From Nitrospirota bacterium (GTDB lineage: Bacteria > Nitrospirota > UBA9217): a stretch of DNA of 64,000 nt. The position numbers and the translations under genes are program-made. Where the stretch lies: positions 1,824,001 to 1,888,000 of the forward strand of contig CAWFSF010000006.1 of assembly GCA_963818475.1 (NCBI GenBank), written 5' to 3'. Positions 1,178 to 64,000 of the stretch are shown in pieces. The stretch's first letter is position 1, and every line of letters begins with the position of its first letter. Below the pieces are notes generated by a model. It saw only the letters and a list, made by a program, of their open reading frames with translations, searched no databases and was not told the origin of the DNA.

Positions 1178-1228
1178 ACTCCTGACTCCGCTGACTCCTG
1201 ACTCCTGACTTCTTACTTTTTACTTCTT
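1178..1228. repeat. Degenerate heptamer tandem array (ACTCCTG)n
   Basis: actcctg-actccgctg-actcctg-actcctg-acttctt-acttttt-acttctt, directly after and overlapping the radical SAM stop codon. Confidence 0.75.
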
Positions 1229-2569
1229 GCTTCCCGCTATTTCACCCGTGCGTTTCATCTCTTCCCGCTCGCGGGCGAACTGTTTGAACGCCCTGCCCTG
1301 CGGGAACTGGACCATCCAGGATGTGAAATGGCTCATGGGAAAACCTTTCCATGATATCTGCCTGATGCGGTCCAGGATCTTCGGCACCGTGAACAGGTCG
1401 GACCTGAGCTGGACGATCGCATCCTCCCGCTCGAAAGGCGTCATCGTGGGATGTTCGTAGGTCGCGTGGTTCCCGTCAAAACTGTCCCAGTCCAGGCCGG
1501 GCAGAAGATGGGGTTTGTAAAGATCGTACAGGTCCGTGCCCGGGAAGGGCGTGGTCATCACGGGATGGGCCGAGACCTTGAGTTCGTCGCAGAGTTTGCT
1601 GATGCCGTCGAAATCCCCGCGGACGTCCTGCCTGCCGCCGACCATGATGAAGAGCATCACTTCGATGCCGTGGTCCCGTATCTTCTTTATGGCGTCACGG
1701 CGCTCACGGCCCTGTTTGTTCACAGCCTTGTATTCCTTGAGGCTCTCGATATTGTTCGATTCCCAACCCACGAGCACGGCCGTGAGACCGGCTTTGCGGG
1801 CATTGTCCAGCAGTTCGTGCGACCGGGGATGCTGCACCGAGGTGAGGTCTCCGGAACCGAACCACCATTTTCCCCTTATGTTCCTGCTCATCTCCCGATA
1901 GAGCTCGATGGAGCGGTCAACGTTCACCCCCCAGATGTTGTCGTCGATGCCCCAGAACAGATGCCGTTTGCTGGCGGCAACCTCCTCGACAACATCTTTG
2001 ATCGGACGCATGCGGACCTTGCCGCCGAAGAACTTGTGCACGGAACAGAAGGAGCAGCTGAAGGGACAGCCGCGCGACGTCTGAAAATATCCATAGACGT
2101 ACTTCGTGTTCCAGAGGTTGGTGACCGGACGGGGCATACTGACGAGGTCGTGGAACGTGCCGTTATACACTGGCTGCAACCGGTTTTTCTCGGCGTCCTC
2201 CAGCAGGCCTTTCCAGATATGCTCTGATTCGCCGAGGACAACGGCATCGGCATGCGCACCGGCCTCCTGAGGAAGAGCGGTCACATGCATTCCGCCGAGG
2301 ATGACCTTCTTCCCCATCTCGCGCAGGCGGTCTGCCGTGCGATAGACCCAGGGTGCCTGCGGCGTAAGCACCGTGAAACCGATCAGGTCGGCATCAGCTC
2401 TGGCGGGGTCGAAGGACTCCTTGTTCGCATCGATCAGCTGGACCTCGACATCCGGCCTGACCTGGCGGGTAAGGCCGGTCATGTACTCGAGAACGGGGGG
2501 TGCAATGGGGAGGCCTTTTGACTTCTGGCCCTTTTCGCCAAAAGGCGGGGAAATGAGCAGTAATTTCAT
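1220..2569 (-). CDS. Cobalamin-binding radical SAM protein (class B methyltransferase-like)
   Basis: N-terminal B12-binding domain (VILGGMHVT...VVLGESE) followed by SRGCPFSCSFC (CxxxCxxC); 449 aa. Confidence 0.92.
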   Translation of the reverse strand: MKLLLISPPFGEKGQKSKGLPIAPPVLEYMTGLTRQVRPDVEVQLIDANKESFDPARADADLIGFTVLTPQAPWVYRTADRLREMGKKVILGGMHVTALPQEAGAHADAVVLGESEHIWKGLLEDAEKNRLQPVYNGTFHDLVSMPRPVTNLWNTKYVYGYFQTSRGCPFSCSFCSVHKFFGGKVRMRPIKDVVEEVAASKRHLFWGIDDNIWGVNVDRSIELYREMSRNIRGKWWFGSGDLTSVQHPRSHELLDNARKAGLTAVLVGWESNNIESLKEYKAVNKQGRERRDAIKKIRDHGIEVMLFIMVGGRQDVRGDFDGISKLCDELKVSAHPVMTTPFPGTDLYDLYKPHLLPGLDWDSFDGNHATYEHPTMTPFEREDAIVQLRSDLFTVPKILDRIRQISWKGFPMSHFTSWMVQFPQGRAFKQFAREREEMKRTGEIAGSKK

Positions 2570-2680
2570 CGCAATGCAGAAGATTAACTATGTGACAGGA
2601 GGCGCAGAATCAAATGGGAAGCGATCACGGGCCGTTCTTTATTCCCATTCTGAAAACCTTGCGATCCTGTCAAATGAAAA

Positions 2681-3121
2681 TCAAAGCTCCTCACAAAATG
2701 TTTTTATTTTTTCGAGCACGCCGTCAGCTTCCTTCTGGTTCAGCTTTTCCACGACACTGCTCTTTGAGACCGTGCTCATGATCTTTCCCGGGATCTCGTA
2801 CGTGATCTCGACGGCAAGGTCCGTGCCGCCGTTCGCCGGTGTGAACGAGTAGCTCTCCTGGATGGGAAAGCTTCCCTCCATTTTCATGCCGAACTTGCTG
2901 TTTTTGACATTCTCCGTAACATGACCCTTACCGCTGAATGTTATACCGAGCATCCGGTATTCCCAGACGAACGTCGTCCCTGGTTCAACATTTGGGGACG
3001 AGAGGTCCCTGACATCGGTCAGGCTCGTCACATACCGGGTCCAGTTGCCAGGGCTGGTCACGAACTGAAAGACCTTCTCAACGGGAGAATTAATGGACAC
3101 CTTCTTTACGATATTCGCCAT
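2681..3121 (-). CDS. SRPBCC/START (polyketide cyclase-like) family protein
   Basis: VSINSPVEKVFQFVTSPGNW pattern, 146 aa, AAGGAGG RBS. Confidence 0.85.
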   Translation of the reverse strand: MANIVKKVSINSPVEKVFQFVTSPGNWTRYVTSLTDVRDLSSPNVEPGTTFVWEYRMLGITFSGKGHVTENVKNSKFGMKMEGSFPIQESYSFTPANGGTDLAVEITYEIPGKIMSTVSKSSVVEKLNQKEADGVLEKIKTFCEEL

Positions 3122-3159
3122 TGCCGTATCCTCCTTGTGCGGTTCTATTGATAGATGAA

Positions 3160-3188
3160 ATTATAGTATAAACACTACGAGATTACAA
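3160..3188 (-). promoter_or_regulatory. Putative sigma70 promoter of the SRPBCC gene
   Basis: TTGTAA-17 bp-TATAAT on the minus strand. Confidence 0.55.
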
Positions 3189-3225
3189 CAGGTTGTTTCG
3201 GACCGCAATACGAAAGGCTGCACAA

Positions 3226-3852: not shown

Positions 3853-3862
3853 ATCGCTCCGC

Positions 3863-3980
3863 GATAATTGGAAATTGGAGATTTTAAATTTAAAAATGTA
3901 AATTGTTTAAAATAGAAACTATGCCCGCAGGGCATACCGCCAATTTTAAATTTCCAATTTTCACTTTCCAATTTTCAATC
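3863..3980. repeat. Inverted heptamer-array element with a central hairpin
   Basis: Left arm (AAATTGG-like)n, right arm (CAATTTT/CAATTTC)n, central TATGCCC-GCA-GGGCATA at 3920-3936. Confidence 0.8.
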
Positions 3981-3989
3981 GGTATTTCT

Positions 3990-5318: not shown

Positions 5319-5374
5319 GACAATCTCCCTGATGCTCGATGCAGAATCCAGGAGCCTCTTAACTATAAACAGCC

Positions 5375-5518
5375 TTTGACATACATAACATCGGATAAAA
5401 TCCCGATAACTGCGGATTGTTTCGGACAGAGATCTCACCCTCTTGATGATAGAAGTATCTTTTTGTTTTATTGCTTTATCCGCTTTTATCCGTGTTAATC
5501 CGCTTCTTCAGTGTCCAA
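5375..5518. repeat. Inverted roughly 10-bp-period array element (CGGATAA core), between atpB and atpA
   Basis: Left tttgacat...cggataaaat-cccgataact-gcggatt; right ttatccgc-ttttatccgt-gttaatccgc-ttcttcagtgtccaa. Confidence 0.75.
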
Positions 5519-5559
5519 GATGTTTTCTGGACTTATGAGCTTACCAACTTTATTCTGTA

Positions 5560-7184
5560 TCAGCCAACCGTTTTCATCGCGTCTTCCAGCCCCACTCCCT
5601 GTTTCAGCAAGGCTGCTGCGGATTCGTGGAGGTCCAGAAGCCGCTTGATGATCGCCAGCGTCTTTTCGGGCGGCGAGAAAGCGTCGTCGCTGTATGCGTT
5701 CTGCTGCAGGAACTCGGTGCGGATCATTTCGGCAATCCGCATCAGCAGGCGGTCCGCATCCTGCAGCCCTTCAGCCCCCACGATCTCAGAGACCTCGCGG
5801 AGCGACTCTTCCTCCTGCAGGATCTGGCGGCATCGCGCGAGCAGACGCGTCCCACTCCGAAGAGACCTTTTTTTTGTAATGCGTTGCCACGTCTCCGGCA
5901 TAGAGCGAGTAGCTCTGGAACCAGTTGATCGCCGGATAATGCCTGCGGTGCGCCAGGGAGGTGTCGAGCATCAGAAATGCGCCGGTCGTGCGCAGACAGG
6001 CCTGGGTCACCGGCTCGGTGAAATCTCCGCCCGGCGGTGAGACTGAAAGGATCATGCTGAGCGAGCCGATCCTGTTGTTCAGGGTCTCGACCACGCCGGA
6101 CCGCTCGAAGAACGCGGACAGCCGCGACGCAAGATACGTGGGATAGCCCTCTTCGCCGGGCATCTCTTCCAACGAGGCTGAAATTTCGCGCAGCGCCTCG
6201 GCCCATCGGGAAAGGCTGTCGGCAAGGAACAGCACATGGTAGCCCATATCGCGGTAGTACTCCGCCATGGTGACGGCGGTATAGATCGACGCCTCGCGCG
6301 CAGCCACGGGCATGTTCGACGTATTGACCACGAGCACCGTGCGGTCCCGGAGCGGCCTGCCGCTCCAGGGGTCGCGCAGCTCCCCGAACTCGGCGATCAT
6401 GTCCGCCATTTCGTTGCCGCGCTCGCCGCAGCCGACATAGACAACGATATCCACGTCAGCGAACTTGGCCACCGACTGCTCGAGGATCGTCTTGCCCGTG
6501 CCGAATCCGCCGGGGAAGATGGCGGTCCCGCCGCGCGCCAGGGGGAACAGAAAATCGATGCTGCGCTGGCCGGTCACGAGCGGCTCAGCAGGCGCGAACT
6601 TTCTCTTGTAGGGCCGCGCGAAACGCACTGGCCACTCATGGCAGCCCGGTATGTCCCGGCCGGACTCGAACTGCCCCAGCGGTTCGTCGAGGCTGATGTC
6701 TCCTTCGGTAAGCCTGGCGATCTTTTCACGGTCCCCCGAACCGCCGAGGATAAAGTGTTTGAATGCACCTTCCTGGACCGAGCCGATGATGGCGCCGGGC
6801 GTGATCAGTTCTCCCGGTTTCATCATCGGCGTGAACTGCCACCGCTTCATGTAATCCAGGGCGTACATTTCCTTGCCGCCGGTGATAAAGGGCCCCATTT
6901 CCTTTCTGAGCCGTTCGAGCGGGCGCTGGAGCCCGTCGAACATGCCCGACGAGAAGCCCGGGCCCCAGGCGCACCGTAAGCGGCATACCAACGCCCTTCA
7001 CCGGTTCTCCGACACCCAGGCCGCGCGTGTCCTCATAGACCTGGATCACGGCCCGTTCGCGTTCGAGACGAACGACCTCGCCCGTCAGCATGGCGTGGCC
7101 GACGTAGACGCGCTCGTACAGGGTAAGCCCCTTCAGGTCGGTCGTAACGGTAGGTCCTGATATTCCCTGGATTTTTCCACTCAT
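5560..7184 (-). CDS. atpA: V/A-type ATP synthase subunit A (two apparent frameshifts, ~6965 and ~5880)
   Basis: MSGKIQGISGP start; Walker A PGGFGTGKT, YVGCGERGNEM, NTSNMPVAAREAS, MPGEEGYP, PPGGDFTEPVT, FLQQNAY across three ORF pieces. Confidence 0.95.
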
Positions 7185-7224
7185 TGAGAGACCCCGTTGT
7201 TGTACTGATAATCTTAAACAAACC

Positions 7225-7364
7225 TTTTGACACGGATCAGATCTGATAAACATCGGATAAAATCGGATTTTCTCTTGCGGGAAAAGATTCACCTTTCTGA
7301 TGAGAATCTCACTTTTGATGTATCCGCCCTTATCATACGTTAATCCGATTCTTCCGTGTCCAAA
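7225..7364. repeat. Inverted roughly 10-bp-period array element, homologous to 5375-5518
   Basis: Left ttttgacacggatcag...cggataaaatcggat; right tatccgcc...taatccgattcttccgtgtccaaa; same outer ends as the element after atpA. Confidence 0.78.
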
Positions 7365-7398
7365 TGATTCGGTCACAACAATCTGTTCCCGGCCCCAG

Positions 7399-7737
7399 TC
7401 AGAGCTTCAACCGCACATGGTATCCAATGGCCCGCCTGATGAGGCGTGATGTGTAATCCTCTACATCCTCAGGCGGTTTTTCCGGCGCAGGCAGTACGAG
7501 CAGTATCCCGTGCCATCCTTGTTCCAGTTCCTGCACCCGTTCATACGACATCCCCTGCCCGTTCTGTGCCCGGCTCATCAGCCGTTCATCGATGATCACC
7601 AGGCCGACATCCGGATCGGTCATGCTCCTCTGCAGCGTTTCCTCGGCATCATCCGCCTCGACCGCAGCCTGGGGAAGACCGGTCAGGCTGAATCCGTAGG
7701 ACGCATCAGGAGGCGTTATGAACGATATCTTTTTCAT
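7399..7737 (-). CDS. atpF: V/A-type ATP synthase subunit F
   Basis: GFSLTG, VGLVIIDE, LIRRAIG; 112 aa; operon position. Confidence 0.9.
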   Translation of the reverse strand: MKKISFITPPDASYGFSLTGLPQAAVEADDAEETLQRSMTDPDVGLVIIDERLMSRAQNGQGMSYERVQELEQGWHGILLVLPAPEKPPEDVEDYTSRLIRRAIGYHVRLKL

Positions 7738-7756
7738 GGCCTATCAAAACCGATCT

Positions 7757-9278: not shown

Positions 9279-9279
9279 G

Positions 9280-9504: not shown

Positions 9505-9541
9505 AGGACCTCCTTTTATTTAATCCGGACAAGCCGGAACC

Positions 9542-9650
9542 ATTTTGCCACGAAGACACAAAGGCACGAAGAAATCCTCAATGATTGTACCGTCTATTTA
9601 ATCTGCAAACCTAAAGATTCCTTTGTGTCTTCGTGCCTTCGTGGCAGAAT
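9542..9650. repeat. Inverted 9-bp-period array element (CACGAAGRC), between atpK and atpI
   Basis: 35-bp arms at 9542-9576 and 9616-9650 match at 29/35 as inverted repeats; all differences are transitions. Confidence 0.88.
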
Positions 9651-9684
9651 TATGTTTTTCATTTTGCCTAGATTTTTTCAGCGC

Positions 9685-19372: not shown

Positions 19373-20902
19373 TTAAATCCTTCTCTCGTATTCGCAGAAG
19401 GGGCACCGCCAGGCGTTCTCCGTCTGGTACCACTGCATTTTCTTACGGCAGACCGGGCAAGCCTTTTTTTTGGTCGAGGGCTGCTTATTGGACGATGATG
19501 ATTTCTTTTTTGATTCCTCGTTTTCGTTCGACGACAGGGATGTCAAAGAGTCGGCAAGGGGCGAAAATGGATCGAAAATCGGCGCCGAAGCTGGACCGGG
19601 CTTGGGTGCGTCCGTATGTTCTTTTTTTTCTTCGATTTTACCCTGGACTTCATTCTTTTTTAATTCTTCGTATGCGCAGGAATAACACTGCCACATTTCC
19701 TCATTACTGAGGAAGTCCATTCGCCCACCGCACATAGGGCATTTTTTCTGCCATTCCGTATCCTTCGGCGCAGAAGACTCACGGATTTCGATTTTCTGCT
19801 CGCCGACTTCTTTTTTCTCGCTGGGAATATCCCATTCAATAGAATTCCTATGCGGAGTGGGCTTCGGTGCGTTCGTCTGTTCACCTTTTTCTTCGTATGC
19901 ACAGGAATAACACTGCCACATTTTCTCATTAATGAGGAAGTCCATTCGCCCACCGCACATAGGGCATTTTTTCTGCCATTCCGTATCCTTCGGCGCAGAA
20001 GAATCAGGGACTTCGATTTTCTGCTCGCCGCTTTCCTTTTTCTCGATGGGAATATCCCATTCAATAGAATCCCTATGCGGAGTGGGCTTCGGTGCGTTCG
20101 TATGTTCACTTTTTTCTTCGATTTTACCCTGAACTTCATCCTCTTTTAATTCTTCGTATGCACAGGAATAACACATCCACATTTTCCCATCAATGAGGAA
20201 GTCCATTCGCCCACCGCACATAGGGCATTTTTTCTGCCATTCCGTATCCTTCGGCGCAGAAGACTCACGGATTTCGATTTTCTGCTCGCCGACTTCCTTT
20301 TTCTCGCTGGGAGTATCCCTGTGCGGGACTGGCTGAGCGGCCGCGCTTTCAGCAGCAAATTCCTCGACCTTTTTTTTGATATAGGTTATCTCCGCCCCGA
20401 TATCCGTAAAGAGTTCCCTCATGGCCTTCTCGACGAGTTCCATTTCCTTTTCACGTGTCGCCATGCCATTGAGGAGCCCTTTTTCTTCGCTTTCAAGCCA
20501 TACTATTCTTTCACGTAGTTTCGCTATCTCGCCTCTCATCTCCTGCGATTTGGTTTCCATGACCTTACGTTCGTCATGCCAGCCGGGGAGAGCAGGCATT
20601 AAGCCCTTCTCGAGTATTTTAAGCTCATCAAGCTGATTGTTGACTGCCGCAATGATCTCTTGCCGGCTTAGTTTCGAAGTCGTCGACAACGCCTTGATAG
20701 CGGCATTATAACGCTGTTTCTCCTCAGGAATGACTTCCCGGAACGATTCCTCGAGTCCACGGAATTTTCCGAATATTGTATCCTCGCCCTCAATTACTTT
20801 TTTTATTTCATCGCGTAGACGATGGATTTTGGATGATAGTTCTTCGTCTCCCTTCGATTTTCCAAAGAGATCGGCAACTATCCGGGAAAGGATTTCGTTC
20901 AT
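19373..20902 (-). CDS. Coiled-coil protein with four zinc-ribbon domains
   Basis: N-terminal coiled coil; three CPMC-x14-CYSC units and a terminal CPVC...CPFC; 509 aa, intact. Confidence 0.85.
   Translation of the reverse strand: MNEILSRIVADLFGKSKGDEELSSKIHRLRDEIKKVIEGEDTIFGKFRGLEESFREVIPEEKQRYNAAIKALSTTSKLSRQEIIAAVNNQLDELKILEKGLMPALPGWHDERKVMETKSQEMRGEIAKLRERIVWLESEEKGLLNGMATREKEMELVEKAMRELFTDIGAEITYIKKKVEEFAAESAAAQPVPHRDTPSEKKEVGEQKIEIRESSAPKDTEWQKKCPMCGGRMDFLIDGKMWMCYSCAYEELKEDEVQGKIEEKSEHTNAPKPTPHRDSIEWDIPIEKKESGEQKIEVPDSSAPKDTEWQKKCPMCGGRMDFLINEKMWQCYSCAYEEKGEQTNAPKPTPHRNSIEWDIPSEKKEVGEQKIEIRESSAPKDTEWQKKCPMCGGRMDFLSNEEMWQCYSCAYEELKKNEVQGKIEEKKEHTDAPKPGPASAPIFDPFSPLADSLTSLSSNENEESKKKSSSSNKQPSTKKKACPVCRKKMQWYQTENAWRCPFCEYERRI
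19666..20330. repeat. Three near-identical intragenic repeats (periods 225 and 261 bp)
   Basis: Copies start at 19666, 19891 and 20152 (cttcgtatgc...ggaagtccattcgcccaccgcacatagggcattttttctgccattccgtatccttcggcgcagaaga). Confidence 0.92.
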
Positions 20903-21113: not shown

Positions 21114-22151
21114 CTAGCCAGCGAAATGACTATATCCCGTCGGCTTTAGGACCGCCCGCTCGCCATTATCATTTAAAAACATCTTATTTCCAGCAATGAT
21201 CGTGCCGATCTGCGTAGATACTATTTTGAGAGAAAGGAACTTCTTGAGTTTTGAAGGCGGGAGAGTGAACAGAAGCTCATAATCCTCGCCTCCTGAGAGG
21301 GCGTAATGAAGCGGAATGGCATTTAGATGATAGGCTGCATTGCGCATATCTTCTGAAAAAGGTATCTGATCGGCACGGATCTCCGCACCTACCCTGCTCT
21401 CTTCGCAAATATGCCCGAGATCGGATGACAACCCATCGCTGATATCTATCATAGCTGTGGCGCAGCCGGAGAGAGCGATTTTCCTTCCCGATTCGATGCG
21501 CGGCACGGGTTGTAGGTGCCTCTTTATAAGCCGCGCAATTTCGGATTGAGAATTTCGGATTGCGGATTTATACCCTTTACCCTTGGACCCTGGATCCCGA
21601 ACCCTGGCCCCTGCCTTCAAAAGCTCCATCCCCGCGGCCGAATCCCCCAGCGTTCCGGTGACGAAAATAAGGTCTCCCGGGCGCGCCCCTGTCCTGGTAA
21701 GCATTTTCTTCTTTTCGACCTCTCCCAGGGCAGTGACGCTTATCACAAGGCCCTTTTCAGAGCCGCAGGTATCCCCGCCTACGAGGTCAACGCGGTATTT
21801 GCGGCAGAGGGCATTAAAGCCTTTATAGAACTCTTTGATCTGCTCCACGGAGATGCCTGCTGGGATGCCGAGCGCCGTGAGGCAGAAGCGGGGAACGCCT
21901 CCCATGGCGGCAATATCGCTCAGGTTCACGGCAGCGGATTTCCAGCCAAGAGAATAAAAATCTGTATAGGACAGGTCGAAATGCACGCCTTCGAGCAGCA
22001 TGTCGGTCGTGGTGAGCAGCTTTTTGGAAGGTGAGAGTGAAAGCGCGGCAGCATCGTCTCCGATGCCGATCAGCGTTGCAGGTGATCTGCCTTTGGATTG
22101 TTCTTTGATCTTCTTTATCAGGCCGAATTCGCCGAGGTCCGATATTTTCAT
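21114..22151 (-). CDS. thiL: Thiamine-monophosphate kinase
   Basis: GEFGLI, GIGDDAA, AVNLSDIAAMGG, VGGDT, IDISDGL, GGEDYEL. Confidence 0.96.
   Translation of the reverse strand: MKISDLGEFGLIKKIKEQSKGRSPATLIGIGDDAAALSLSPSKKLLTTTDMLLEGVHFDLSYTDFYSLGWKSAAVNLSDIAAMGGVPRFCLTALGIPAGISVEQIKEFYKGFNALCRKYRVDLVGGDTCGSEKGLVISVTALGEVEKKKMLTRTGARPGDLIFVTGTLGDSAAGMELLKAGARVRDPGSKGKGYKSAIRNSQSEIARLIKRHLQPVPRIESGRKIALSGCATAMIDISDGLSSDLGHICEESRVGAEIRADQIPFSEDMRNAAYHLNAIPLHYALSGGEDYELLFTLPPSKLKKFLSLKIVSTQIGTIIAGNKMFLNDNGERAVLKPTGYSHFAG
21537..21615. repeat. Heptamer arrays in frame inside thiL
   Basis: atttcgg-attgaga-atttcgg-attgcgg followed by taccctt-taccctt-ggaccct-ggatccc-gaaccct-ggcccct. Confidence 0.75.
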
Positions 22152-22274
22152 CGTTTAATTCGCAAAGATGCGTCTTTTTTAAACTCGAAAGAGTTGTATC
22201 TGTCTTTATCCGCGTTCAACACATATTATCCGCGGCAAATGCTCTTTTCAGGATAAACCGATTTGCCTTCCTAA

Positions 22275-22302: not shown

Positions 22303-22323
22303 TCGAATAGTGTTACTCCTGAT

Positions 22324-22348
22324 GGGCGGGTTTCAGACCCGCCCCTAC
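22324..22348 (-). repeat. GTAG-type REP-like palindrome
   Basis: GTAG-GGGCGGGT-CTGAA-ACCCGCCC; second copy at 28200-28228. Confidence 0.75.
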
Positions 22349-22361
22349 CTGATTCTTACGC

Positions 22362-24810
<2,449 letters not shown>

Positions 24811-25854: not shown

Positions 25855-27280
25855 CTACTTGGGGATCGGCACGCTCCCGATCAGATATTTCAGGTCCTCG
25901 TCATCGAACCGCAGCCCGACGCCGACAAAGGGCGCGGACCGCTTGGAGTTCAGGAAGTTGTCGATCCCGCCGTTCACGAACAGGGTATTGCCGAGCATAT
26001 AGCTCGCCGTTGCCTTCATATGAGCATTGATATTCTCCGACTCCCTGCTGTTAAAGTTCCAGGCGTCTACGCTCACTTTCATTTTGTCGCTGAACAGGAA
26101 GTAATCGCCGCCGATGCCGCCTGTGGACTCGATCAATCCAACGCGGAGCGCGGCATCGCCCCAGCGCTTGGCGAACATGAGGCTGAATTTGAAACGGTCC
26201 TCATAGGTCTCGGTCGTGACCGAACTGCCCGGCGTGGTGGTCATGGTGGTGCGTGCGTATTTGCCGTAGGGATCGTTGGTCATCTCGAAGATATAGTATT
26301 TATCCTTTTTGGGCTTGAGCTCAAGAGTAAAATAGCTTTTTGACTTCGGGAACATATATTCGGTGCGGAAGCCGACCACGGTCTGCATACGCTCGATCCG
26401 GGACGTATAGTCGCTGATCCCCTTGGCCGCGCTGTCGATATTGTTATACATGCTGTCGTCGCTGATCAGCTTGCCCAGCGTTCCCTCGCCGCGGTCCACC
26501 TTCCGGGCGACGCTCTCGATCGAGGCCAGGGCAAGCTCGGCGTTCCGCGATGCTTCCCGGATGTTCTCCATGCTTACTTTCAGGTTGTCCCGGTTCTCGC
26601 CCACGACGGCATTGAGGCTGTCGGCAAGTTCATTCAGCCGCATGACGAGTTCGCTCCCGTCGCCTTGAAGCGTGATGGAAAATTCCTTGATGTTCGCCAT
26701 GGTTTCGCGCAGATCGTGCAGGATGTCCTCCATGGACCGGGCACCTGCCTCGGTACCCAGGACCTGGCGCAACGACCCGGTCACCTCCTTGATGTCGCCC
26801 GCTATGCCGCTTAGCTGGTTAATGAGCTTATCCACGTCGCTGGGCGATACGGTCGCCTGGATCGTCTCTTCGGGCTGATAATAGCCGGGCTTCCCTGCCG
26901 CATCGGGCATGCTGCCCTCGGGACCGTCCGTCTCTCCGCTCCGGCGGAACAAGATCCACGAATTTATCCCCCAGGAGCCCCATGGTCTTGATCGTGGCCT
27001 CTGATCCGCGTTTTATCTGGATGTCCGGATCGATCCGCAAGATGACTTTGGCGCGGCTGTCGGAGAGTACCACGCGCTCGACCGTGCCGATCTTGACCCC
27101 GGCCATGCGAACGGCCGATTTTTCGTCAAGGCCTGCCACCGAGTCAAAGAGCGCCGAAAGCGTATACCCTTTTGCCTCGCCGAACTCGTACTTTCCTACC
27201 ATAAAGGTCATGATGAGGAGGGTGATCGATCCTACAATGACCAGCAACCCCACCTTTGCCTCTGCACTCAGATTAGCCAT
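25855..27280 (-). CDS. mlaD: MCE/MlaD protein with long helical region and C-terminal beta-rich domain (frameshift ~26940)
   Basis: TM anchor, FDSVAGL...VRMAGVKIG.V, GLLGDKFV; heptad region with GEGTLGKL; alternating-aromatic beta strands at the C-terminus. Confidence 0.88.
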
Positions 27281-27295
27281 GAAAACTCCCTGTTT

Positions 27296-27387
27296 ATTTC
27301 GGATTGCGGATTTCGGATTGCGGATTAAACTTCAAAAACGTTGAAGACCCAGACTTGTCTTTATTCCGCATTCCGCAATCCGCAATT
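27296..27387. repeat. Inverted heptamer-array element between mlaF and mlaD
   Basis: (ATTTCGG ATTGCGG)x2 ... ATTCCGC ATTCCGC AATCCGC AATT. Confidence 0.85.
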
Positions 27388-27392
27388 GAAAA

Positions 27393-28139
27393 TTAGTCCG
27401 CCGTTATCGGCCCTACCGCGCTCCCGGTAATGAACTGGTGCACGATGGGGTGCGAGGTCTGCCTGATCTCGTCGGGCGTTCCGATCTCGAGGATCTCGCC
27501 TTTATAGAGCATGGCGATGCGGTCCGAGATCTTGTACGCGCTGTGCATATCATGCGTGATCGCAACCGAGGTCACGCCGAGTTTTTTCCGCAGGTCGATG
27601 ATCAGGTCGTTGATGGCGTCGGCTGAAATGGGGTCCAGTCCCGTGGTCGGTTCATCATACAGGATAATGGACGGGTTGATGGCTATGGCCCGGGCCAGCC
27701 CGACCCTTTTTTTCATGCCGCCCGACAGCTCCGCGGGCATCTTGTCCTCAATGCCCTTGAGCCCCACGAGCGCGAGTTTTTCCGTCGCCATGGCGCGGAT
27801 CTCCCGGTCCGACATCTTGGTGTGCTGTTTCAGCGCAAAACCCACGTTCTCCCATACGCTCAGCGAATCGAAGAGCGCCGCCATCTGGAAGAGCATGCCG
27901 AACTTCTTGCGCACCTCGTTCAGGCCGTGCTGATCAAGGTTGTTCAGCTCCTGTCCGTCGATGATCACCCGGCCCTGGTCCGGGAACAGCAATCCGATGA
28001 TGTGCTTCAGCAGCACGCTTTTGCCGCTGCCGCTGCCGCCGATCACCGTCATGCTTTCGCCCTTCTCGACGGTGAGATTGACCCCGCGGAGCACGCGCTG
28101 CTCGCCAAATCCCTTATGGAGGTTGATGATCTCGATCAT
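27393..28139 (-). CDS. mlaF: MlaF/Mkl ABC transporter ATP-binding protein
   Basis: GGSGSGKS, LFQMAALFDSL, LSGGMKKR, YDEPTTGLDP. Confidence 0.93.
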   Translation of the reverse strand: MIEIINLHKGFGEQRVLRGVNLTVEKGESMTVIGGSGSGKSVLLKHIIGLLFPDQGRVIIDGQELNNLDQHGLNEVRKKFGMLFQMAALFDSLSVWENVGFALKQHTKMSDREIRAMATEKLALVGLKGIEDKMPAELSGGMKKRVGLARAIAINPSIILYDEPTTGLDPISADAINDLIIDLRKKLGVTSVAITHDMHSAYKISDRIAMLYKGEILEIGTPDEIRQTSHPIVHQFITGSAVGPITAD

Positions 28140-28176
28140 AATTATCAAAAAAAGTCAGAATTCAATCTCCGGTTTC

Positions 28177-28258
28177 AGACTCCTGACTCCCGCTCTTCTG
28201 TACGGGCGGGTTTCAAACCCGCCCCTACCTGCCCCGGGCCCCTGACTCCCGGCCTCTT
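28177..28258. repeat. GACTCCY heptamer array interrupted by a GTAG-type REP (28200-28228)
   Basis: gactcct-gactccc ... gtacgggcgggtttcaaacccgcccctac ... ggcccct-gactccc-ggcctct. Confidence 0.7.
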
Positions 28259-28265
28259 GTACTTA

Positions 28266-31744: not shown

Positions 31745-31828
31745 TACATCACATTCCCTGTTCTGCAATGCCAGCTCCATTTCAATTTCGGATTTCGAAT
31801 GGAACCGTCGAGCATGATTACCGTACTG

Positions 31829-33585
31829 CTACAGCTCCGCCGCAAGATCCGGGAAACGCTCCTCCATGAACCGTACGGCGGTCTGCCGGGACCGTTCCGC
31901 TGTCGGTTGGGCGATCACCAGCGCATGCCAGCTCAAGTGCGTCCTGCATGCGCACCGATCTGATCACTTTTTTTACCCAGGGAATCGATGCCACGTTCAT
32001 GCTGAGCACGGTGAAGCCCATGCCGATCAGGATCGCCGCATAGAGCGGGTCTCCTGCCATCTCCCCGCACATGGCCAGGGGGATGTTCGCCTCGCGGGCC
32101 GCGTCGGACACCTTCTGGAGCAGGCGCAGAACGGCCGGGTCGAGCGGCTCGTACATATAGGCAACGTGCTCGTTCTGACGGTCGATGGCCAGCGTATACT
32201 GGATCAGGTCGTTGGTGCCGACGCTGAAGAAATCGACCTCGGCAGCGAGCAGATCGGCGATCAGCGCCGCAGAGGGGATCTCGATCATCACGCCGATCGG
32301 CATGTTCTCGTTAAAAGCCTTGCCCTCCGCACGCAGCTCCGCTTTCACGTCTGCGAGAATGGCCTTGGTCGCATACAGTTCGGGAAGGCCGGAGATCATG
32401 GGGTACAGGATCTTTATATTCCCGTGGGCCGACGCCCGGAGGATGCCTTTGAGCTGGACCCTGAAAATGTCCTGTTTCTTGAGGCTGAACCGGATCGCCC
32501 GCAGTCCCAGGGCGGGGTTCGATTCTTGTTCAAAACCCGTGGAGATCGCTATCTTGTCACCGCCGAGATCGAAGGTGCGGACCACGACCTCCTGGGGAAG
32601 CGGCGCGTTCCGCAACCTGACGATAAGCCACATAGTGCTCTTCTTCCGTCGGCAGTGTCGAACGGTTCATGAACAGAAACTCGGTCCGGTACAGGCCGAT
32701 GCCGTGGCCGCCGTGGTCTGCAACGGATGCGACCTCCTCGGGCAGTTCAATGTTCCCCTCAAGCAGCACGACCTGGCCATCGAGGGTCTCAGCCGGCAGG
32801 TCCTTGATGCTCTCAAGCTCCTGCTCGAAGTATTTATAGCGCCGTTGTTTCTTAAGATAGTCGAGGAAGGTTTCTTCGTCGGGATCAATGATGACCACGC
32901 CGTGGATGCCGTCCAGGATCACGACATCGCCGGTCTTGACCGCCGCCGTGATGTTCTCGAGACCCACGGCAGCAGGGATCCCCATGGAACGTGCAAGGAT
33001 CGCCGTGTGCGAGGTCCGGCTCCCGGCATCGGTAGCGAACCCCAGGATCTTGTCCTTGCGCATCATGAGGGTGTCCGAAGGGGCCAGATCATGCGCAATG
33101 ATCACGGCCTCACCCTTGATATCGGCCAGACTCTCCTGCTTGTGGCCCACAAGGTTCCGCAGGATGCGCTCGCCGACCTGCTCCACATCGTGTTTGCGCT
33201 CGCGCAGATACTCATCCTCGATCGTATCGAACTTGAGGCTGATCGCCTCGATCGTCTCTTTCAGCGCCCCTTCGGCATTCAGACGGGTTTCCTTGATGCG
33301 CTTGACCGTGCCGTCAACGAGCATCTTGTCCTCGAGCAGCATGATATGCGTGTCGAGGATATAGAGATGGGACTTTCCTATCCCCTTGGTAAGACGCTTT
33401 TTCAGGTCCTCAAGCTGGCTTTTCGAAAGCTCCACCGCCCGCTTGAAGCGCGCCACCTCATCCTTGACGCTGACTTCCTCGATCCGCTGCCCGGCCACCA
33501 CCACTTTGCGCCGATCGAGAAGATATGCGCGCCCGATCACAATGCCCGGTGAGGCCATGATGCCTCTGAACACTTTCTCGTGCAT
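31829..33585 (-). CDS. ptsI: PTS enzyme I (frameshifts ~32605 and near the C-terminus)
   Basis: SHTAILAR, GIGLYRTEF, RTFDLGGDK, NPALGLRAIR, GTNDLIQY, CGEMAG. Confidence 0.96.
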
Positions 33586-35504: not shown

Positions 35505-35635
35505 AGCCGCATAAAGCACATAAATCACATAGACAAAACAATAAGTGGAAACGATTAAAGTTGTCACCAAATCGGTAAAGGATTCCAAAAACACCTACGT
35601 TTGATTTTTTTGAGCATTCTGTGCATTTTGTGGCT
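35505..35635. repeat. Inverted 9-bp-period array element between PTS IIB and IIC
   Basis: agccgcataaagcacataaatcacata ... tgagcattctgtgcattttgtggct. Confidence 0.72.
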
Positions 35636-35680
35636 CAACTGCTCGATCTAAGATTATTCCTTCGTCAGTTATCCCATCCT

Positions 35681-49522: not shown

Positions 49523-50041
49523 CTATGGCTTGACCTGCCCGACAAACCTCCCCTGATAGGTGGCATGACCGTCGCATTTTTCAAATATAAACTGGCAGAT
49601 CCTGGTACCGGGATATAACGCTAATGGTCCATGCCCTAAATTCACTATTTCCAGAGCCTGATGATTCGAGATGCCCGGATGCATAAAGCCGGCGGTAACG
49701 TGAACAGCCAGCCCGAAACGGGCAAACCTGCTGCGTCCTTCAAGCCGGCCTGAGATATTGTCGGCAAGCGTGATCTTCTCCTTCGTGATCCCCAGGATCA
49801 TTTCACCCGGCTTTATAACGATATACCCGCCGTCCTTCACATGAACGTCCCGGGTGATATCCTGGAAATGAGAATCGTTTTTTATGTGATAGATCTTCGA
49901 CTGTTTTTTAAAGATCCTGAAATCATTGCCGAGCGTAAGATCGATGGAACCCGGTCCGATCTGCGAGCTGTCAAGCGGCTCGATCGCGATCGATCCATTT
50001 TTCAAAGCTTTTTCTATTTCTTTCCCGATCAACACGCTCAT
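49523..50041 (-). CDS. dcd: dCTP deaminase
   Basis: GSIDLTLG, EGRSRFARFGL.VH.TAG, LEIVN, ICQFIF. Confidence 0.92.
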   Translation of the reverse strand: MSVLIGKEIEKALKNGSIAIEPLDSSQIGPGSIDLTLGNDFRIFKKQSKIYHIKNDSHFQDITRDVHVKDGGYIVIKPGEMILGITKEKITLADNISGRLEGRSRFARFGLAVHVTAGFMHPGISNHQALEIVNLGHGPLALYPGTRICQFIFEKCDGHATYQGRFVGQVKP

Positions 50042-54233: not shown

Positions 54234-54307
54234 GGTACAACGCTCCTTGATGCCGGATCAAGGCAAGGTGAATAAATATCGTCAAGCTTGCTGAACTCGC
54301 AATAAAT

Positions 54308-54428: not shown

Positions 54429-54466
54429 AAAGACGATTGCTACAGGCTTTTTACGGGACCGCTGGC

Positions 54467-55309: not shown

Positions 55310-55324
55310 ATAACTCCTTTACGA

Positions 55325-55455
55325 CAAGCACCAAATATCAAGCATCAAATCACAAATAAATCCGAATTTTCAAGAACCAAAATTCAAAACGTTTCGAACA
55401 TTCTAGTTTGGACATTGGAGCTTATTTGGTAATTGTAATTTGAACTTTGGAATTT
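55325..55455. repeat. Inverted heptamer-array element (CAAATAN type), between PDE and accD
   Basis: caagcac-caaatat-caagcat-caaatca-caaataa ... ttggtaa-ttgtaat-ttgaact-ttggaat. Confidence 0.8.
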
Positions 55456-56223: not shown

Positions 56224-56241
56224 TCACCCTCCTTGGAACGG

Positions 56242-56372
56242 CAAATTACAAATCTCAAAATGACAAATTCCAAATAACAACCAATGACCAAATTGCAATA
56301 ACCAAACAGTTTGGAGCTTAGCATTTGGTTATTGGAATCCATTTGATTATTGGTATTTGTGTTGGTGCTTGT
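56242..56372. repeat. Inverted heptamer-array element (CAAATNN type), between cyclase and PDE
   Basis: caaatta-caaatct-...-caaattc-caaataa...caaattg-caataac ... atttggt-tattgga...tgattat-tggtatt. Confidence 0.8.
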
Positions 56373-58272: not shown

Positions 58273-58314
58273 GTTCTCCCCCTGAGCGCGCTCCTCCCGC
58301 CCGGTGTCGAGACG

Positions 58315-58950: not shown

Positions 58951-59050
58951 ACGAACCCCCTTGGTAATTGGTCAATGGTCCCATTGACTGAATAGAACCA
59001 GTGTGTCAGCCGCTCGTTGCCGTAGCGCGGCGTCCTGCCGGCAGGTTTCG

Positions 59051-60791
<1,741 letters not shown>

Positions 60792-60802
<11 letters not shown>

Positions 60803-61605: not shown

Positions 61606-61632
61606 AAGGTTTTTCCAGATCCTCTTAGTTTA

Positions 61633-61665
61633 TTCCGCAATCCGAAATCCGCAATCCGAAATGCG
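61633..61665. repeat. Heptamer array (CCGCAAT CCGAAAT)x2 between trpB and trpA
   Basis: Exact reverse complement of the 14-bp unit at 27296 and inside thiL. Confidence 0.82.
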
Positions 61666-61668
61666 ATG

Positions 61669-62860
61669 CTACAGTTCCACGCCCTTGATCTTCGCCACCT
61701 GCATCACGTCCTTGTCGCCGCGGCCGGAGAGGTTGCAGATGATGATCTTGTCCTTGCCGAGCGTGGGCGCCAGTTTAAGGCAATAGGCAACGGCATGGGC
61801 GCTTTCGAGGGCAGGGATGATGCCTTCCAGGCGCGACAGGAGGTCGAAGGCCTCCATGGCTTCTTCATCGATGGCATAGGTATATTCGATGCGTCCTGAA
61901 TCACGGTAGAACGCGTGCTCCGGCCCGACAGCGGCGTAATCAAGCCCCGCGGAAACAGAGTGCGTCAGTTCGATCTGGCCGTGTTCGTCCTGCAGCACGA
62001 AGGTCTTGGTGCCCTGCAGTACGCCGAGGGAACCGCCGGCGAACCGCGCCGCATGTTTGCCGCGCTCGATGCCGAGGCCGCCGGCCTCGACGCCGTACAT
62101 CTTTACCGTCAGCATCTTCAAGGAACTCGTAGAACAGGCCGATGGCGTTCGAACCGCCGCCCACGCAGGCGACCAGGGCGTCCGGCAGCCGGTTCTCAAG
62201 CTTCATGATCTGTTTCTTTGCCTCGCGCCCGATCACGGACTGGAAGTCCCGCACCATCATGGGGAAGGGGTGGGGACCGAAGGCCGTGCCGAGCACGTAA
62301 TGCGTGTTCGCAACGTTCGTGATCCAGTCGCGCATGGCCTCGTTGATGGCGTCCTTCAGCGTCTTGCTGCCGAGATCGACAGGCCGCACGATCGTTCCGA
62401 GCAGCTTCATGCGGAACACGTTCAGCGACTGGCGCGCCACGTCGTCGGTGCCCATGTACACTTCGCAATCGAGGCCGAACATGGCGGCTGCCGTGGCCGT
62501 GGCAACGCCGTGCTGTCCCGCGCCGGTCTCGGCGATCACGCGGGTCTTGCCCATGCGCTTGGCAAGCAGCACCTGGGCCAGGGAGTTGTTGATCTTGTGC
62601 GCGCCGGTGTGGCAGAGGTCTTCGCGCTTGAGATAGATCTTCGCGCCGCCAAGATGGTCGCTCAGCCGTTTGGCATAATAGAGGGGCGTGGCCCGGCCGA
62701 TGAATTCCCGGGAGTAATAATCGAGCTCGGCCTGGAACTCCTTGTCCTTCTTCGCCGCAAGGTAGGCGGCCTCCAGTTCGGCCAGCGCCGGCATCAGCGT
62801 CTCGGGAGCGAACTTCCCGCCGTAGATGCCGAAATGTCCCTTTTTATCCGGAATGCTCAT
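61669..62860 (-). CDS. trpB: Tryptophan synthase beta chain (frameshift ~62110)
   Basis: [54 protein letters not shown]. Confidence 0.97.
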
Positions 62861-63477
62861 GGCCGCGATGCCCTCCGGACCTCGGTTATGAATTTCTTGA
62901 GCTTGGCGTGGTCCTTGAGTCCCTTTTCCCGCTCAACGCCGCCGGCAACATCGACCCCATAGGGCTGGACGAGCTTCACCGCCTCGGCCACGTTCTCCGG
63001 CGTAAGCCCCCCTGCCAGGACCACCCTGCCCAGGGTCTTTGCCACGACCGCCAGGTGCCAGTCGAAGGTCGTGCCGGTGCCTCCCCGCACGCCCTCACGG
63101 TAACTGTCGAGCAGAAGTGCGCCCACATGGTAGTGCGCCATGTGCTTGAGGCTGTCCTTGTCCTTGACCTGGAACGCCTTGATCACGCGGGTCGCAAAGC
63201 GGTCGCAGAACTCCGGCCGCTCATCGCCATGGAACTGCAGGACCTTGATGCCGGTCGTGAACTGGATGTCCCTGATCTTTTCCTCGCGCTCGTTCACGAA
63301 GACGGCGACCGGCGTGATAAAAGGAGGCAGCTGGTGAATGATCTCGGCCGCCTTCTCGGGATCCACGTAGCGGGGGCTTTTCTTGTAAAAAATGAACCCC
63401 AGCGCATCCGCGCCGTCCTCGGCAGCCGCCATTGCATCATCCAGATTCGTTATTCCGCAGATCTTGATCTTGATCAT
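62857..63477 (-). CDS. trpF: Phosphoribosylanthranilate isomerase
   Basis: [37 protein letters not shown]. Confidence 0.96.
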
Positions 63478-64000
63478 AATTTTACCTCAAGCACGAAATC
63501 CGAAATCGTAAACTCTAAATAATCACAAAACTCACATAACCAATGTTTTGAATTTCGACATTCAATAGTGTTCAGGATTTCGCTATTAGAATTTAGCGCT
63601 TTCCCTAATAGTTCCTTCACTTTTTTTCCGATATCCTTTTCCCGCATCAGGCTCTCGCCGACCAGGATGGCGTCCACGCCCGCCTTCTGAAGCATCACCA
63701 CATCGTCCCGCGTCCTGATCCCGCTTTCGCTCACCACCACGCGGTCATCGGGAATGTCTTTCAGCAGGTCCAGGGTCGTCTGCAGGGTCACCTCGAAGGT
63801 CATGAGGTTCCGGTTGTTGATGCCCACGAGCATGGCCCCGGCCAGCAAAGACTTGTCCAATTCTTTGTAGGTATGCGACTCCACGAGCACGTCGAGTCCC
63901 AGTCCCGCTGCGATGCCGAGGTAGTCCTGCATCTGGCCCCGCTCCAGGCAGGCCGCGATCAGCAGGATGGCATCGGCCCCGAACGCGCGCGCTTCATGGA
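63474..64000 (-). CDS. trpC: Indole-3-glycerol phosphate synthase, 3' part (5' end outside the window)
   Basis: GADAILLI, LVESH, GINNRNL, VSESGI, LVGESLM. Confidence 0.93.
   Translation of the reverse strand, partial: HEARAFGADAILLIAACLERGQMQDYLGIAAGLGLDVLVESHTYKELDKSLLAGAMLVGINNRNLMTFEVTLQTTLDLLKDIPDDRVVVSESGIRTRDDVVMLQKAGVDAILVGESLMREKDIGKKVKELLGKALNSNSEILNTIECRNSKHWLCEFCDYLEFTISDFVLEVKL
63488..63600. repeat. Inverted heptamer-array element between the trpC core and trpF
   Basis: aagcacg-aaatccg-aaatcgt-aaactct-aaataat ... gaatttcg...ggatttcg-ctattag-aatttag. Confidence 0.72.

Follow-up and report, generated by a model that had tools for sequence, protein, structure and literature searches.

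Introduction

The intervening sequences (IVSs) of 23S rRNA genes combine a terminal stem with tandem heptamers and a small gene. According to the accessible part of PMC4990558, the helix-45 IVS of Coxiella burnetii has a 28-bp terminal stem that is cut by RNase III, and tandem heptamers (GACAGAT) are located upstream of the ATG of its S23p gene, whose product is homopentameric. The same text names Leptospira, Xanthomonas and Brucella as further hosts of 23S IVSs bearing an open reading frame (ORF) and terms 23S IVSs selfish elements of unknown origin (PMC4990558). In the following, we study hairpin elements built from short tandem repeats that are found at gene junctions within a 64,000-nt stretch of a Nitrospirota genome (GenBank assembly GCA_963818475.1, contig CAWFSF010000006.1, positions 1,824,001 to 1,888,000 of the forward strand). 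This whole stretch is referred to as the window.

Other described systems share parts of this design. Dispersed inverted doublets accompanied by a dedicated gene are known as REPIN-RAYT systems (accessible parts of PMC3116915, PMC3337134 and bioRxiv 10.1101/2021.07.10.451892). For Geobacter metallireducens, the accessible part of PMC2700814 reports paired inverted arrays, i.e., 24 pairs built from 8-mers, 21 from 9-mers and 8 from heptamers (MTYCTGA). The distance between the paired sites is variable, one heptamer pair is located between proBA, and binding of IHF/HU was proposed (PMC2700814). TAACTGA heptamer repeats are described from Beggiatoaceae, cyanobacteria and Bacteroidetes with a proposed post-transcriptional role (accessible part of PMC4679880).

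An initial annotation of the window had read its hairpins either as RNase III or other processing sites that tune the subunit stoichiometry of operons or as non-autonomous remnants of a mobile system. We consider it likely that they are gene-less members (pairs, solo arms and remnants) of two cassette superfamilies, that is, tolerated or semi-domesticated passengers of operon junctions rather than regulators that arose for particular operons. Class 1 has 4-4.5 tandem heptamers per arm, and its masters carry a gene of the four-helix-bundle S23p family (PF05635/TIGR02436; also named IVP). Class 2 has three 8-10-nt repeats per arm, and its masters carry a gene for a GxxExxY nuclease of the PD-(D/E)XK type. 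Here, a master is a full-length copy with a gene between its arms, while a solo arm is an array without inverted partner. S23p ("IVS proteins") and GxxExxY proteins are encoded by very common small genes and, to our knowledge, no function is known for either of them.

Results

Master genes and their arms

The genome under study (G000) was assembled from the metagenome of an uncultured Nitrospirota bacterium and has an assembly of 4.66 Mb in 7 contigs, where the window corresponds to G000:C6:1824001-1888000. Profile searches identified 5 PF05635 loci above the cut-off and about 11 GxxExxY (TIGR04256) loci. The expectation that longer copies of the arrays enclose four-helix-bundle or GxxExxY genes was borne out: inverted arrays enclose each of the 5 PF05635 genes as well as most of the GxxExxY genes. 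Within 600 nt, an array is found for 5/5 S23p genes and 7/11 GxxExxY genes; arrays on both sides within this distance are found for 4/5 and 5/11 of them, respectively, compared to 0.9% of random segments. Four of the S23p genes have heptamer arms and one has 8-mer arms. That is, heptamer families adjoin S23p genes and 8-10-mer families adjoin GxxExxY genes, with the 8-mer-armed S23p gene as the exception.

The arm units of these masters recur in the window. ATTKCGG is the unit of the elements at 27296 and 61633, AATTGGA of the element at 3863, CACGAAGR of the element at 9542, and the CGGAT-type 10-mer of those at 5375 and 7225. The respective arms are found around the PF05635 genes C6:1993680-1993967 (matching the arms of 27296) and G000:C6:1705765-1706049 (AATTGGA) as well as around the GxxExxY genes C6:314332-314682 (CACGAAGR) and G000:C1:79213-79548 (arms of the 5375 type, by eye). 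The common arms support the second reading of the initial annotation, i.e., non-autonomous remnants of a mobile system. A typical arm family comprises about one master gene and numerous copies without a gene.

The master proteins appear to be functional. For S23p, dN/dS values of 0.14 and 0.09 indicate purifying selection, and the protein matches PDB entry 2rld, which has 5 chains. The GxxExxY protein matches PF13366 (E = 9e-38) and TIGR04256 (4e-40) and keeps the D...ExK motif, with D74, E84 and K86 invariant in 6/6 intact copies. Its predicted model (pLDDT 92) matches only PD-(D/E)XK nucleases, albeit weakly (Cas4, Hjc and lambda exonuclease; E 0.03-0.2). PF13366 is listed as a PD-(D/E)XK nuclease family without assigned function in the accessible part of PMC3424549.

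We also observed GxxExxY genes that are broken by an internal stop, frameshift or truncation and are still located between arms (C5:308147-308479 and C6:988591-988934). Further broken arm-flanked GxxExxY genes are C1:224360-224709, C2:711913-712050 and C2:152874-153038. Since the broken genes remain between their arms, masters decay in place.

Genome-wide scale

A genome-wide scan for tandem arrays with Tandem Repeats Finder (TRF) and for inverted partners had been proposed by the initial annotation; it yields 205 inverted pairs after merging, and arrays are paired more often than in the control. Here, an array was considered paired if its inverted partner was at most 400 nt away, and the reversed sequence served as control. 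Paired arrays amount to 131/391 for period 7 (control 5), 128/239 for period 8 (control 4), 37/192 for period 9 (control 3) and 20/73 for period 10 (control 0). None of the 151 period-6 arrays has an inverted partner, nor is any found in the respective control. Median spacer and total length of the 205 pairs are 47 and 99 nt.

Gene calls were taken from our own crude caller, on which all gap classes and intragenic counts depend. On this basis, gaps between co-oriented genes account for 160 pairs, convergent gaps for 28 and divergent gaps for 8; the other 9 pairs fall within gene calls, i.e., 196/205 are outside of called genes. The genome has 3624 gaps in total, of which 2770 are co-oriented, 426 convergent and 428 divergent.

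The copy number per arm is fixed in both classes: 87/131 ATTKCGG arrays are 29-32 nt long (4-4.5 units), and exactly 3.0 copies are found in 116/128 paired 8-mer arrays. Handedness is fixed, since none of the 28 units seen at least twice occurs in both chiralities, and the 5' arm is purine-rich in 81/82 8-mer pairs. Single-linkage clustering of the arm units chained all heptamers into one family, and thus no per-family copy counts can be derived from it. The long spacers of some 8-9-mer elements harbour nested families of short palindromic repeats (C2:425534-425792, C2:433959-434167, C2:448849-449091 and C6:1719523-1719949).

Cognate masters and arms across lineages

For comparison, we used five congeners (G001-G005), for which synteny is kept at 79-95% identity. 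They are incomplete metagenome-assembled genomes (MAGs), with a completeness of 65-92% for G001, G002, G004 and G005. G000 has one ATTKCGG-armed S23p gene. Its syntenic ortholog in G003 shows 91% identity and is found at the same locus with the same arms. Homologs from other genera with 62-66% identity carry AGTGCGG or AATGCGG arms, and homologs with 33-45% identity carry unrelated heptamers. Flanking genes are common to the masters of G013 and G009 as well as to those of G006 and G011. Arms of the G009 type are dispersed in G009, G011 and G013 (13 to at least 22 matches), with 0-4 matches in the genus of G000, and the reverse pattern is observed for the ATTKCGG arm, which is dispersed in the genus of G000.

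Beyond these genomes, we identified 80 homologs of the ATTKCGG master with 56-90% identity from at least 10 phyla. S23p proteins with 56-66% identity to this master (loci L064-L142) are found in at least 10 phyla, including Chloroflexota, Planctomycetota, Acidobacteriota and Verrucomicrobiota. Inverted arms are present in 69 of the 73 homologs with enough flanking sequence; 68/69 have period 7, and all show NNTKCGG-type units. Such near-identical arm units around S23p homologs in at least 10 phyla point to a wide horizontal spread of the whole cassette.

Metagenome data provide a side observation for the ATTKCGG element at 27296. In two runs, the summed contig depth in bin 27204-27470 is 304 and 2360 compared to about 13-60 nearby, and the loose contig ends beside this bin have many different flanks. 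Given the depth jump with many different flanks, the ATTKCGG arm seems to be common in soil/wetland DNA.

Stop-codon anchoring and strand rule

Next, we related the arrays to the ends of long ORFs. When arrays are read as ATTKCGG, a long ORF ends -3 to +10 nt upstream in 61/131 cases, most often at 1-5 nt, and the arms begin 0-8 nt behind the stop codon in mRNA sense; for the opposite strand, this is observed for only 5/131. The 71 solo ATTKCGG arrays follow the same rule. In co-oriented gaps, 38 of them are sense on the mRNA compared to 3 in complement (p = 1e-8), and the window's solo arm at 61633 is one of the 38. A further 24/71 are inside crude gene calls, such that more intragenic cases may exist. 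For the other heptamers, 30% are stop-adjacent, with 69 purine-rich cases compared to 6. Respective values are 14% for random intergenic positions and 7-8% for the 8-10-mers.

Six paired heptamer elements of the window begin 1-10 nt behind a stop codon, and 10-18 nt separate their ends from the following start. The cross-phylum cassettes show the same placement, i.e., 44/73 start -5 to +6 nt from the host stop, and 42/69 are co-oriented with the upstream host gene compared to 1 that is only antisense. In many of them, the first repeat unit joins the stop codon without a gap. That is, solo arms and stop-codon anchoring are strongly strand-specific, and an RNA-level or transcription-linked constraint exists.

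Turnover among congeners

The comparison of orthologous junctions among the five congeners suggested by the initial annotation revealed empty, filled and differently filled sites. The mlaF/mlaD junction (27296) is occupied in G000-G004, where the spacer of G002 is unrelated, and empty (17 nt) in G005; a soil-metagenome contig with about 94% identity also bridges an empty junction. CAGGAGT...ACTCCTG pairs are found at mlaE/mlaF in G002 and G004, where G003 has 41 nt and G005 is empty. The V-ATPase I/c junction has the CACGAAGR element with three different spacers in G000, G001 and G004, other sequence in G003, and is empty in G005, whose two genes overlap. V-ATPase F/A (7225) is filled in G000, G001, G003 and G005 and empty (31 nt) in G004. 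At the accD junction (55325), each of G000-G004 shows a different array and G005 is empty (6 nt). Five different fillings are observed for V-ATPase B/D (3863), namely that of G000 and four others in G001 and G003-G005. The 56242 element is found in G000 and G002-G004, with short other sequence in G001 and G005. Empty junctions are thus located at 27281, 28149, 9505 and 55310 for G005 and at 7200 for G004. Being present, absent or differently filled among congeners, the elements are not fixed or conserved parts of the operons; they come and go at permissive junctions.

We also computed the mean pairwise identity of arms and spacers in orthologous copies. For 27296 (four species), the arms reach 0.95/0.88, compared to 0.68 for the spacer and 0.64/0.50 for the neighbouring intergenic sequence. 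The respective values are 0.85/0.93, 0.44 and 0.75/0.45 for 9542 and 0.62/0.84 (right arm 0.84), 0.35 and 0.59/0.55 for 7225. That is, arms are conserved while spacers drift. The degenerate element at 56242 shows no excess arm conservation (0.73/0.64 vs. 0.79 for the spacer); copies of this type suggest a decay of arm families that have no master.

Elements of the window

All window elements listed in the following are assigned to the minus strand. Using TRF with a score of at least 30, arrays are found at 10/13 main sites (1178, 3866/3940, 5475, 7233, 9620, 21538/21579, 27296/27365, 35510/35614, 56243 and 61634), which confirms the repeat-built hairpin elements of the initial annotation. At this score, no array is reported at 28177, 55325 and 63488, where the repeats are degenerate and visible by eye only. 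The inverted-arm architecture holds as well: the longest inverted repeats of the window (within 200 nt) are these elements, i.e., 3863-3898/3941-3976 (36 nt, 81%), 9542-9576/9616-9650 (35 nt, 83%) and 27296-27329/27360-27393 (34 nt, 82%), and 5376/5475 is also among the window's inverted repeats. Rfam has no match in the window at the gathering threshold.

For each element, the minimum free energy (MFE) of the mRNA strand was compared with 200 dinucleotide shuffles. The supposed folding excess applies to part of the elements. Six paired elements beat 200/200 shuffles, i.e., 9542 (z -8.7), 27296 (-4.6), 3863 (-3.9), 28160 (-3.9), 7225 (-3.3) and 63488 (-3.3), and 55325 beats 198/200 (z -2.5, MFE reached by 2/200). 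Four elements show no excess, namely 5375 (-1.2), 56242 (-1.0), 21537 (-0.7) and 35505 (-0.1). For the array at 1178, z is -2.5 and 4/200 shuffles reach the MFE.

Most sites are indeed located between co-oriented operon genes with Pfam-confirmed context, with 21537, 1178 and 63488 as exceptions. Host junctions are V-ATPase I/c, F/A, A/B and B/D (operon order by Pfam I/c/C/F/A/B/D), mlaE/F and mlaF/D, PTS IIB/IIC, accD/phosphodiesterase/cyclase, trpC/F and trpB/A. The window was further said to contain neither an S23p or GxxExxY gene nor a transposase. By profile search, S23p and GxxExxY genes are absent; the statement on transposases has to be qualified by ORF 19373-20902 with an IS1595-type transposase zinc-ribbon. 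Within this ORF, a 225-bp unit is repeated twice with 94% identity at 19664-20120.

The direct heptamer array at 1178..1233 (TRF period 7 at 1178-1210 and 1208-1233) is without clear inverted partner. On the mRNA, it reads AAGAAGU/CAGGAGU-type and overlaps the stop codon (1220-1222, distance -14) of a radical-SAM/B12 gene; a related array is found at the same position in G001.

In the V-ATPase operon, the paired heptamer hairpin of the AATTGGA family at 3863..3979 (TRF 3866-3905 and 3940-3979) fills the B/D junction, with the stop 10 nt upstream, the next start 10 nt downstream and a small GC stem-loop in the spacer. Between A and B, the pair at 5375..5520 has three CGGAT-type 10-mers per arm (5376-5399 and 5475-5498; TRF period 10 at 5475-5505) and is a GxxExxY-type element without gene. 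A pair with three 10-mers per arm is located at 7225..7362 (TRF 7233-7268) between F (stop 7399-7401) and A (start 7184). The element at 9542..9650 between the I and c subunits had been assigned a period of 9, which is wrong; its period is 8, with three CACGAAGR units per arm. It has an outer inverted extension beyond the 8-mer arms, and its spacer has a sibling at C1:108739-108775 (89% over 37 nt).

The array pair at 21537..21613 (TRF 21538-21568 and 21579-21613) is chimeric and non-complementary: on the mRNA, a CAGGGTN-type array is directly followed by a CCGMAAU array. It is located in frame inside the ThiL-like (AIRS) ORF 21114-22151, which stays open across the arrays. The AIRS_C match places 170 residues on 153 profile positions. 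The array region aligns without large gap in G002-G005, where the arrays are kept, with the array at the matching place in G004.

At mlaF/mlaD, the paired heptamer hairpin with [ATTKCGG]x4 arms at 27296..27386 (TRF 27296-27326 and 27365-27386) fills the junction at 6 nt from the upstream stop and 15 nt from the next start. The mlaE/mlaF junction is filled by short ACTCCTG-type repeats around a GC-rich hairpin at 28160..28262 (by eye; no TRF row), at a distance of 3 nt to the stop before it and of 11 nt to the start behind it; its folding excess derives mostly from the GC hairpin. A GC-rich hairpin of about 25 nt is seen at both 22320-22350 and 28198-28228 and at about 8 loci of the genome. One copy is located in the V-ATPase B/D junction of G003, where G000 has the AATTGGA element.

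The 9-mer pair at 35505..35640 (TRF 35510-35531 and 35614-35632) between PTS IIB and IIC has CACATAAAG-type units and a long spacer. This unit family is also found elsewhere in the genome, and no master gene for it was found there. Two degenerate heptamer pairs follow. The one at 55325..55450 (by eye; no TRF row), which has its C/A-rich arm first, is located between a class-II phosphodiesterase-like gene and accD. The CAAATNN-type pair at 56242..56370 (TRF 56242-56280) lies between the adenylate cyclase and phosphodiesterase-like genes, 1 nt past the upstream stop and 18 nt ahead of the following start.

In the trp operon, the solo arm at 61633..61668 (TRF 61634-61666) reads [AUUKCGG]x4 on the mRNA, starts 0 nt after the trpB stop (61669-61671) upstream of trpA, and is retained as a solo arm in G001 and G003. 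A degenerate heptamer pair occupies the trpC/trpF junction at 63488..63600 (by eye), with the next start 10 nt downstream. The trpC frame reads through it, i.e., the frame has 152 residues and extends 44 residues beyond the IGPS domain, whose end is at residue 108.

For the three weak remnants of the initial annotation, no TRF array is found (0/3). By eye, repeat units are visible in two of them, namely a two-unit ATTKCGG remnant at 31783..31800 (folding z -1.4) and a one-arm remnant of the CGGAT-type 10-mer family at 22205..22240 (z -1.9). The third, at 58961..58990, is a short palindrome beside the start of a cNMP-binding gene and is conserved in all six genomes. Beside it (junction 58951), G001 and G002 have a 10-mer element, G003 a heptamer pair and G004 a CGCAAAG element; the junction is short in G000 and G005.

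Several housekeeping genes of the window, i.e., V-ATPase A (5786-7376), Lon (22362-24810), PTS enzyme I (31818-33585) and trpB (61669-62860), are each split into two overlapping frames, which reflects either assembly indels or real frameshifts. Given these splits, indel errors are likely and exact ORF ends in the assembly need caution.

Discussion

Proposed mechanism

For the gene-less passengers of the two cassette superfamilies, we propose that their tandem repeats are recognised in trans by the protein of the respective master, which may thereby maintain or spread the copies that carry no gene. This would follow the logic of a master with satellites known from REPIN-RAYT, with different proteins. 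Within the operon mRNA, paired arms would form a stem of about 25-30 bp, whose base would be melted by a ribosome terminating at the adjacent stop codon. RNase III, for which the genome has a gene, probably cuts this stem as it does the IVS stem in 23S rRNA; such a cleavage is plausible given the homology with the Coxiella 23S IVS (accessible part of PMC4990558).

The heptamer class might in addition be a trans-acting RNA system. Here, a pentameric S23p ring would bind the 4-5 post-stop heptamers at about 130 sites, one repeat per subunit, and act on post-termination events. Potential targets would be ribosome release or re-initiation, the opening of the hairpin, or the access of RNase III. 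TRAP, which binds triplet repeats, serves as a model for one repeat per subunit. We regard this extension as doubtful.

Several observations weigh against the view of gene-less passengers maintained by master proteins. In four congeners (G001, G002, G004 and G005; 65-92% complete MAGs), all of which have many arrays, no ATTKCGG master was found. The binding of the protein to its repeats is suggested by co-variation only, which linkage within one element could mimic. Some window elements are degenerate, i.e., 56242, 35505 and 5375 are without folding excess and 56242 is without arm conservation. Furthermore, folding shows no strand bias (sense better in 82 and antisense in 72 of 156; p = 0.26), such that the hairpin itself is without sign of RNA-specific selection.

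The spacers and the element ends also belong to these counterpoints. Only 42/187 spacers resemble another spacer. A second genomic copy is found for 29/178 (25/116 in the 8-10-mer class and 4/61 among heptamers), and nearly all such copies are sibling elements. A match to a master interior is observed for 16/178 spacers vs. 5 for shuffles, where the top match is a self-overlap. Given these counts, we rejected both captured genomic fragments and relics of the resident master's interior as candidate sources of the spacers. With mostly unique spacers, neither MITE-like copying (MITE, miniature inverted-repeat transposable element) nor internal deletion of a master explains the heptamer class. Finally, target-site duplications for k = 4-8 are observed as often as in the control for all classes, with only rough end estimates for the 8-10-mers.

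Alternative explanations

The hairpins could be mRNA processing or stability elements (for RNase III or similar) that were selected by the host to set the relative output of operon genes. Six window heptamer elements do occupy exactly the gap from a stop codon to the following ribosome-binding site, most elements form strong stems, and RNase III cleaves IVS stems of this design according to the accessible part of PMC4990558. The strand and stop-codon specificity of the heptamer arms likewise suggests that selection acts on RNA or on translation. We nevertheless consider this explanation unlikely. G005 is without element at 4 junctions and G004 at one, and other species have unrelated arrays, which leaves the tuning of subunit stoichiometry, as put forward in the initial annotation, unsupported as a host adaptation. 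In addition, sense-strand folding is no better than antisense folding, ATTKCGG arms are found at 131 places beside unrelated genes, and several window copies are decayed.

It is quite improbable that the arrays are binding sites of a global host regulator or nucleoid protein (IHF, HU) that organises the chromosome or regulates transcription. Such binding had been put forward for the similar paired arrays of Geobacter metallireducens (accessible part of PMC2700814), and the conservation of arms relative to spacers as well as the fixed copy number per arm fit a protein-binding site. Against this, the arrays bracket S23p and GxxExxY genes above chance and co-vary with these proteins, they are depleted at promoters (8/196 pairs in divergent gaps vs. 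428/3624 gaps), and orthologous junctions are empty or differently filled in congeners. Furthermore, a symmetric site in double-stranded DNA is unlikely, since solo arms follow the direction of transcription (38 vs. 3).

Conventional mobility would make the elements either ordinary MITEs that belong to a conventional insertion sequence or REPINs mobilised by a RAYT/HUH transposase, with S23p and GxxExxY genes as mere cargo. Terminal inverted repeats, the presence/absence polymorphism and the 25/116 spacers of the 8-10-mer class with a second genomic copy would fit, and two filled/empty junctions allow for a short duplication (5-8 bp, by eye). The genome has 11 Y1_Tnp (PF01797) loci, and a link to HUH or RAYT genes had been suggested. 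This link failed: 2/11 loci have any array within 600 nt and 0/11 have arrays on both sides, and the same holds for 0/6 reverse transcriptase (RVT_1) loci with arrays on both sides within 600 nt. Since, moreover, the duplication signal equals the control at the estimated ends, the heptamer spacers are unique (4/61 shared) and the arms co-vary with the enclosed small proteins across phyla, we judge this origin very unlikely.

A local origin of the arrays by replication slippage as for microsatellites, with incidental inverted pairing, could account for different heptamers at the same junction in different species and for the heptamer number that varies among Coxiella strains (accessible part of PMC4990558), but is highly improbable given one unit that recurs at 131 sites and whose array lengths peak sharply at 29-32 nt, exactly three copies in 116/128 paired 8-mer arrays, the fixed handedness, inverted partners about 25-fold above the control, and the unpaired period-6 arrays (0/151).

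Implications

If the window elements are gene-less members of the two superfamilies, the IVS design works at large scale outside of rRNA, with about 200 hairpins and many solo arms at junctions of essential operons, and a master-plus-satellite organisation as in REPIN-RAYT is built on two unrelated proteins. The positional rule (mRNA sense, start at the stop codon) makes the vague notion of a "selfish repeat" testable in terms of repeat recognition and termination events. Annotation and operon prediction should expect such elements, i.e., longer intergenic gaps, extended or replaced C-termini (trpC) and in-frame insertions (ThiL-like). Should the doubtful trans-acting reading of the heptamer class be true, it would provide a function for the long-mysterious IVS protein and a new type of self-propagating regulon that is common to many phyla.

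Comparison with known systems

As in 23S IVSs, an S23p gene is located between complementary ends with a long stem, which here holds for masters only and for none in the window. Tandem heptamers in the terminal region (here the period-7 arrays), a highly transcribed host unit and a pentameric four-helix-bundle protein (here the match to 2rld with five chains) are further common features. Unlike for 23S IVSs, hosts are protein-coding genes and their junctions rather than helix 25 or 45 of the 23S rRNA, most copies are gene-less, a second, nuclease-bearing class exists, and the heptamer class is anchored at stop codons. The genome has only one 23S gene (C1:46444-49445, minus strand), which measures 3002 nt compared to a model of 2925 positions; being only 77 nt longer, it leaves no room for an ORF-bearing IVS. 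Just upstream of it, heptamer arrays are observed at C1:49569-49628 and 49729-49757, one of which is an inverted pair.

With REPIN-RAYT systems, as far as they are described in the accessible parts of the sources given above, the elements share dispersed inverted doublets of family-specific sequence around a spacer at extragenic sites (196/205 pairs here) and masters that are flanked by their own cognate repeat. About one master per family and a long vertical inheritance may be further parallels: masters are syntenic in G000/G003, G013/G009 and G006/G011, and for ATTKCGG, one master is seen in G000 with its ortholog in G003 and none was found in the incomplete MAGs G001, G002, G004 and G005. 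They differ in that the master is no Y1/HUH transposase, that the arms are tandem 7-10-nt units instead of single palindromes, and that the heptamer class is strand- and stop-codon-specific.

MITEs are likewise short, non-coding, multi-copy and polymorphic elements bounded by inverted repeats, and some 8-10-mer copies share their interior. In contrast to MITEs, interiors are mostly unique here, no duplication signal is seen at the estimated ends, and no transposase of a known family is linked. Cyanobacterial short tandemly repeated repetitive (STRR) sequences are another type of intergenic heptamer direct repeat.

Our full-text literature search covered sources outside of subscription journals; therein, no paper ties gene-less arrays to S23p or GxxExxY genes, and no report of the stop-codon rule was found. 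Classes 1-3 of G. metallireducens, as given in the accessible part of PMC2700814, resemble the elements in their opposite-strand sites of 3-5 tandem 7-9-nt repeats each, at variable distance and between operon genes, and the class 3 unit MTYCTGA matches the ACTCCTG/CTTCTGA arrays at 1178, at 28177 and in congeners. Unlike here, a connection of the sites with S23p or GxxExxY genes is not made in that part of the source. TAACTGA repeats, according to the accessible part of PMC4679880, are tandem heptamers at many intergenic sites near coding boundaries as well, and their spread over distant phyla suggests horizontal transfer. Those repeats are mostly direct repeats upstream of start codons, for which that part of the source identifies no linked protein gene, whereas the arrays studied here are inverted pairs or solo arms just past stop codons and are tied to two protein families.

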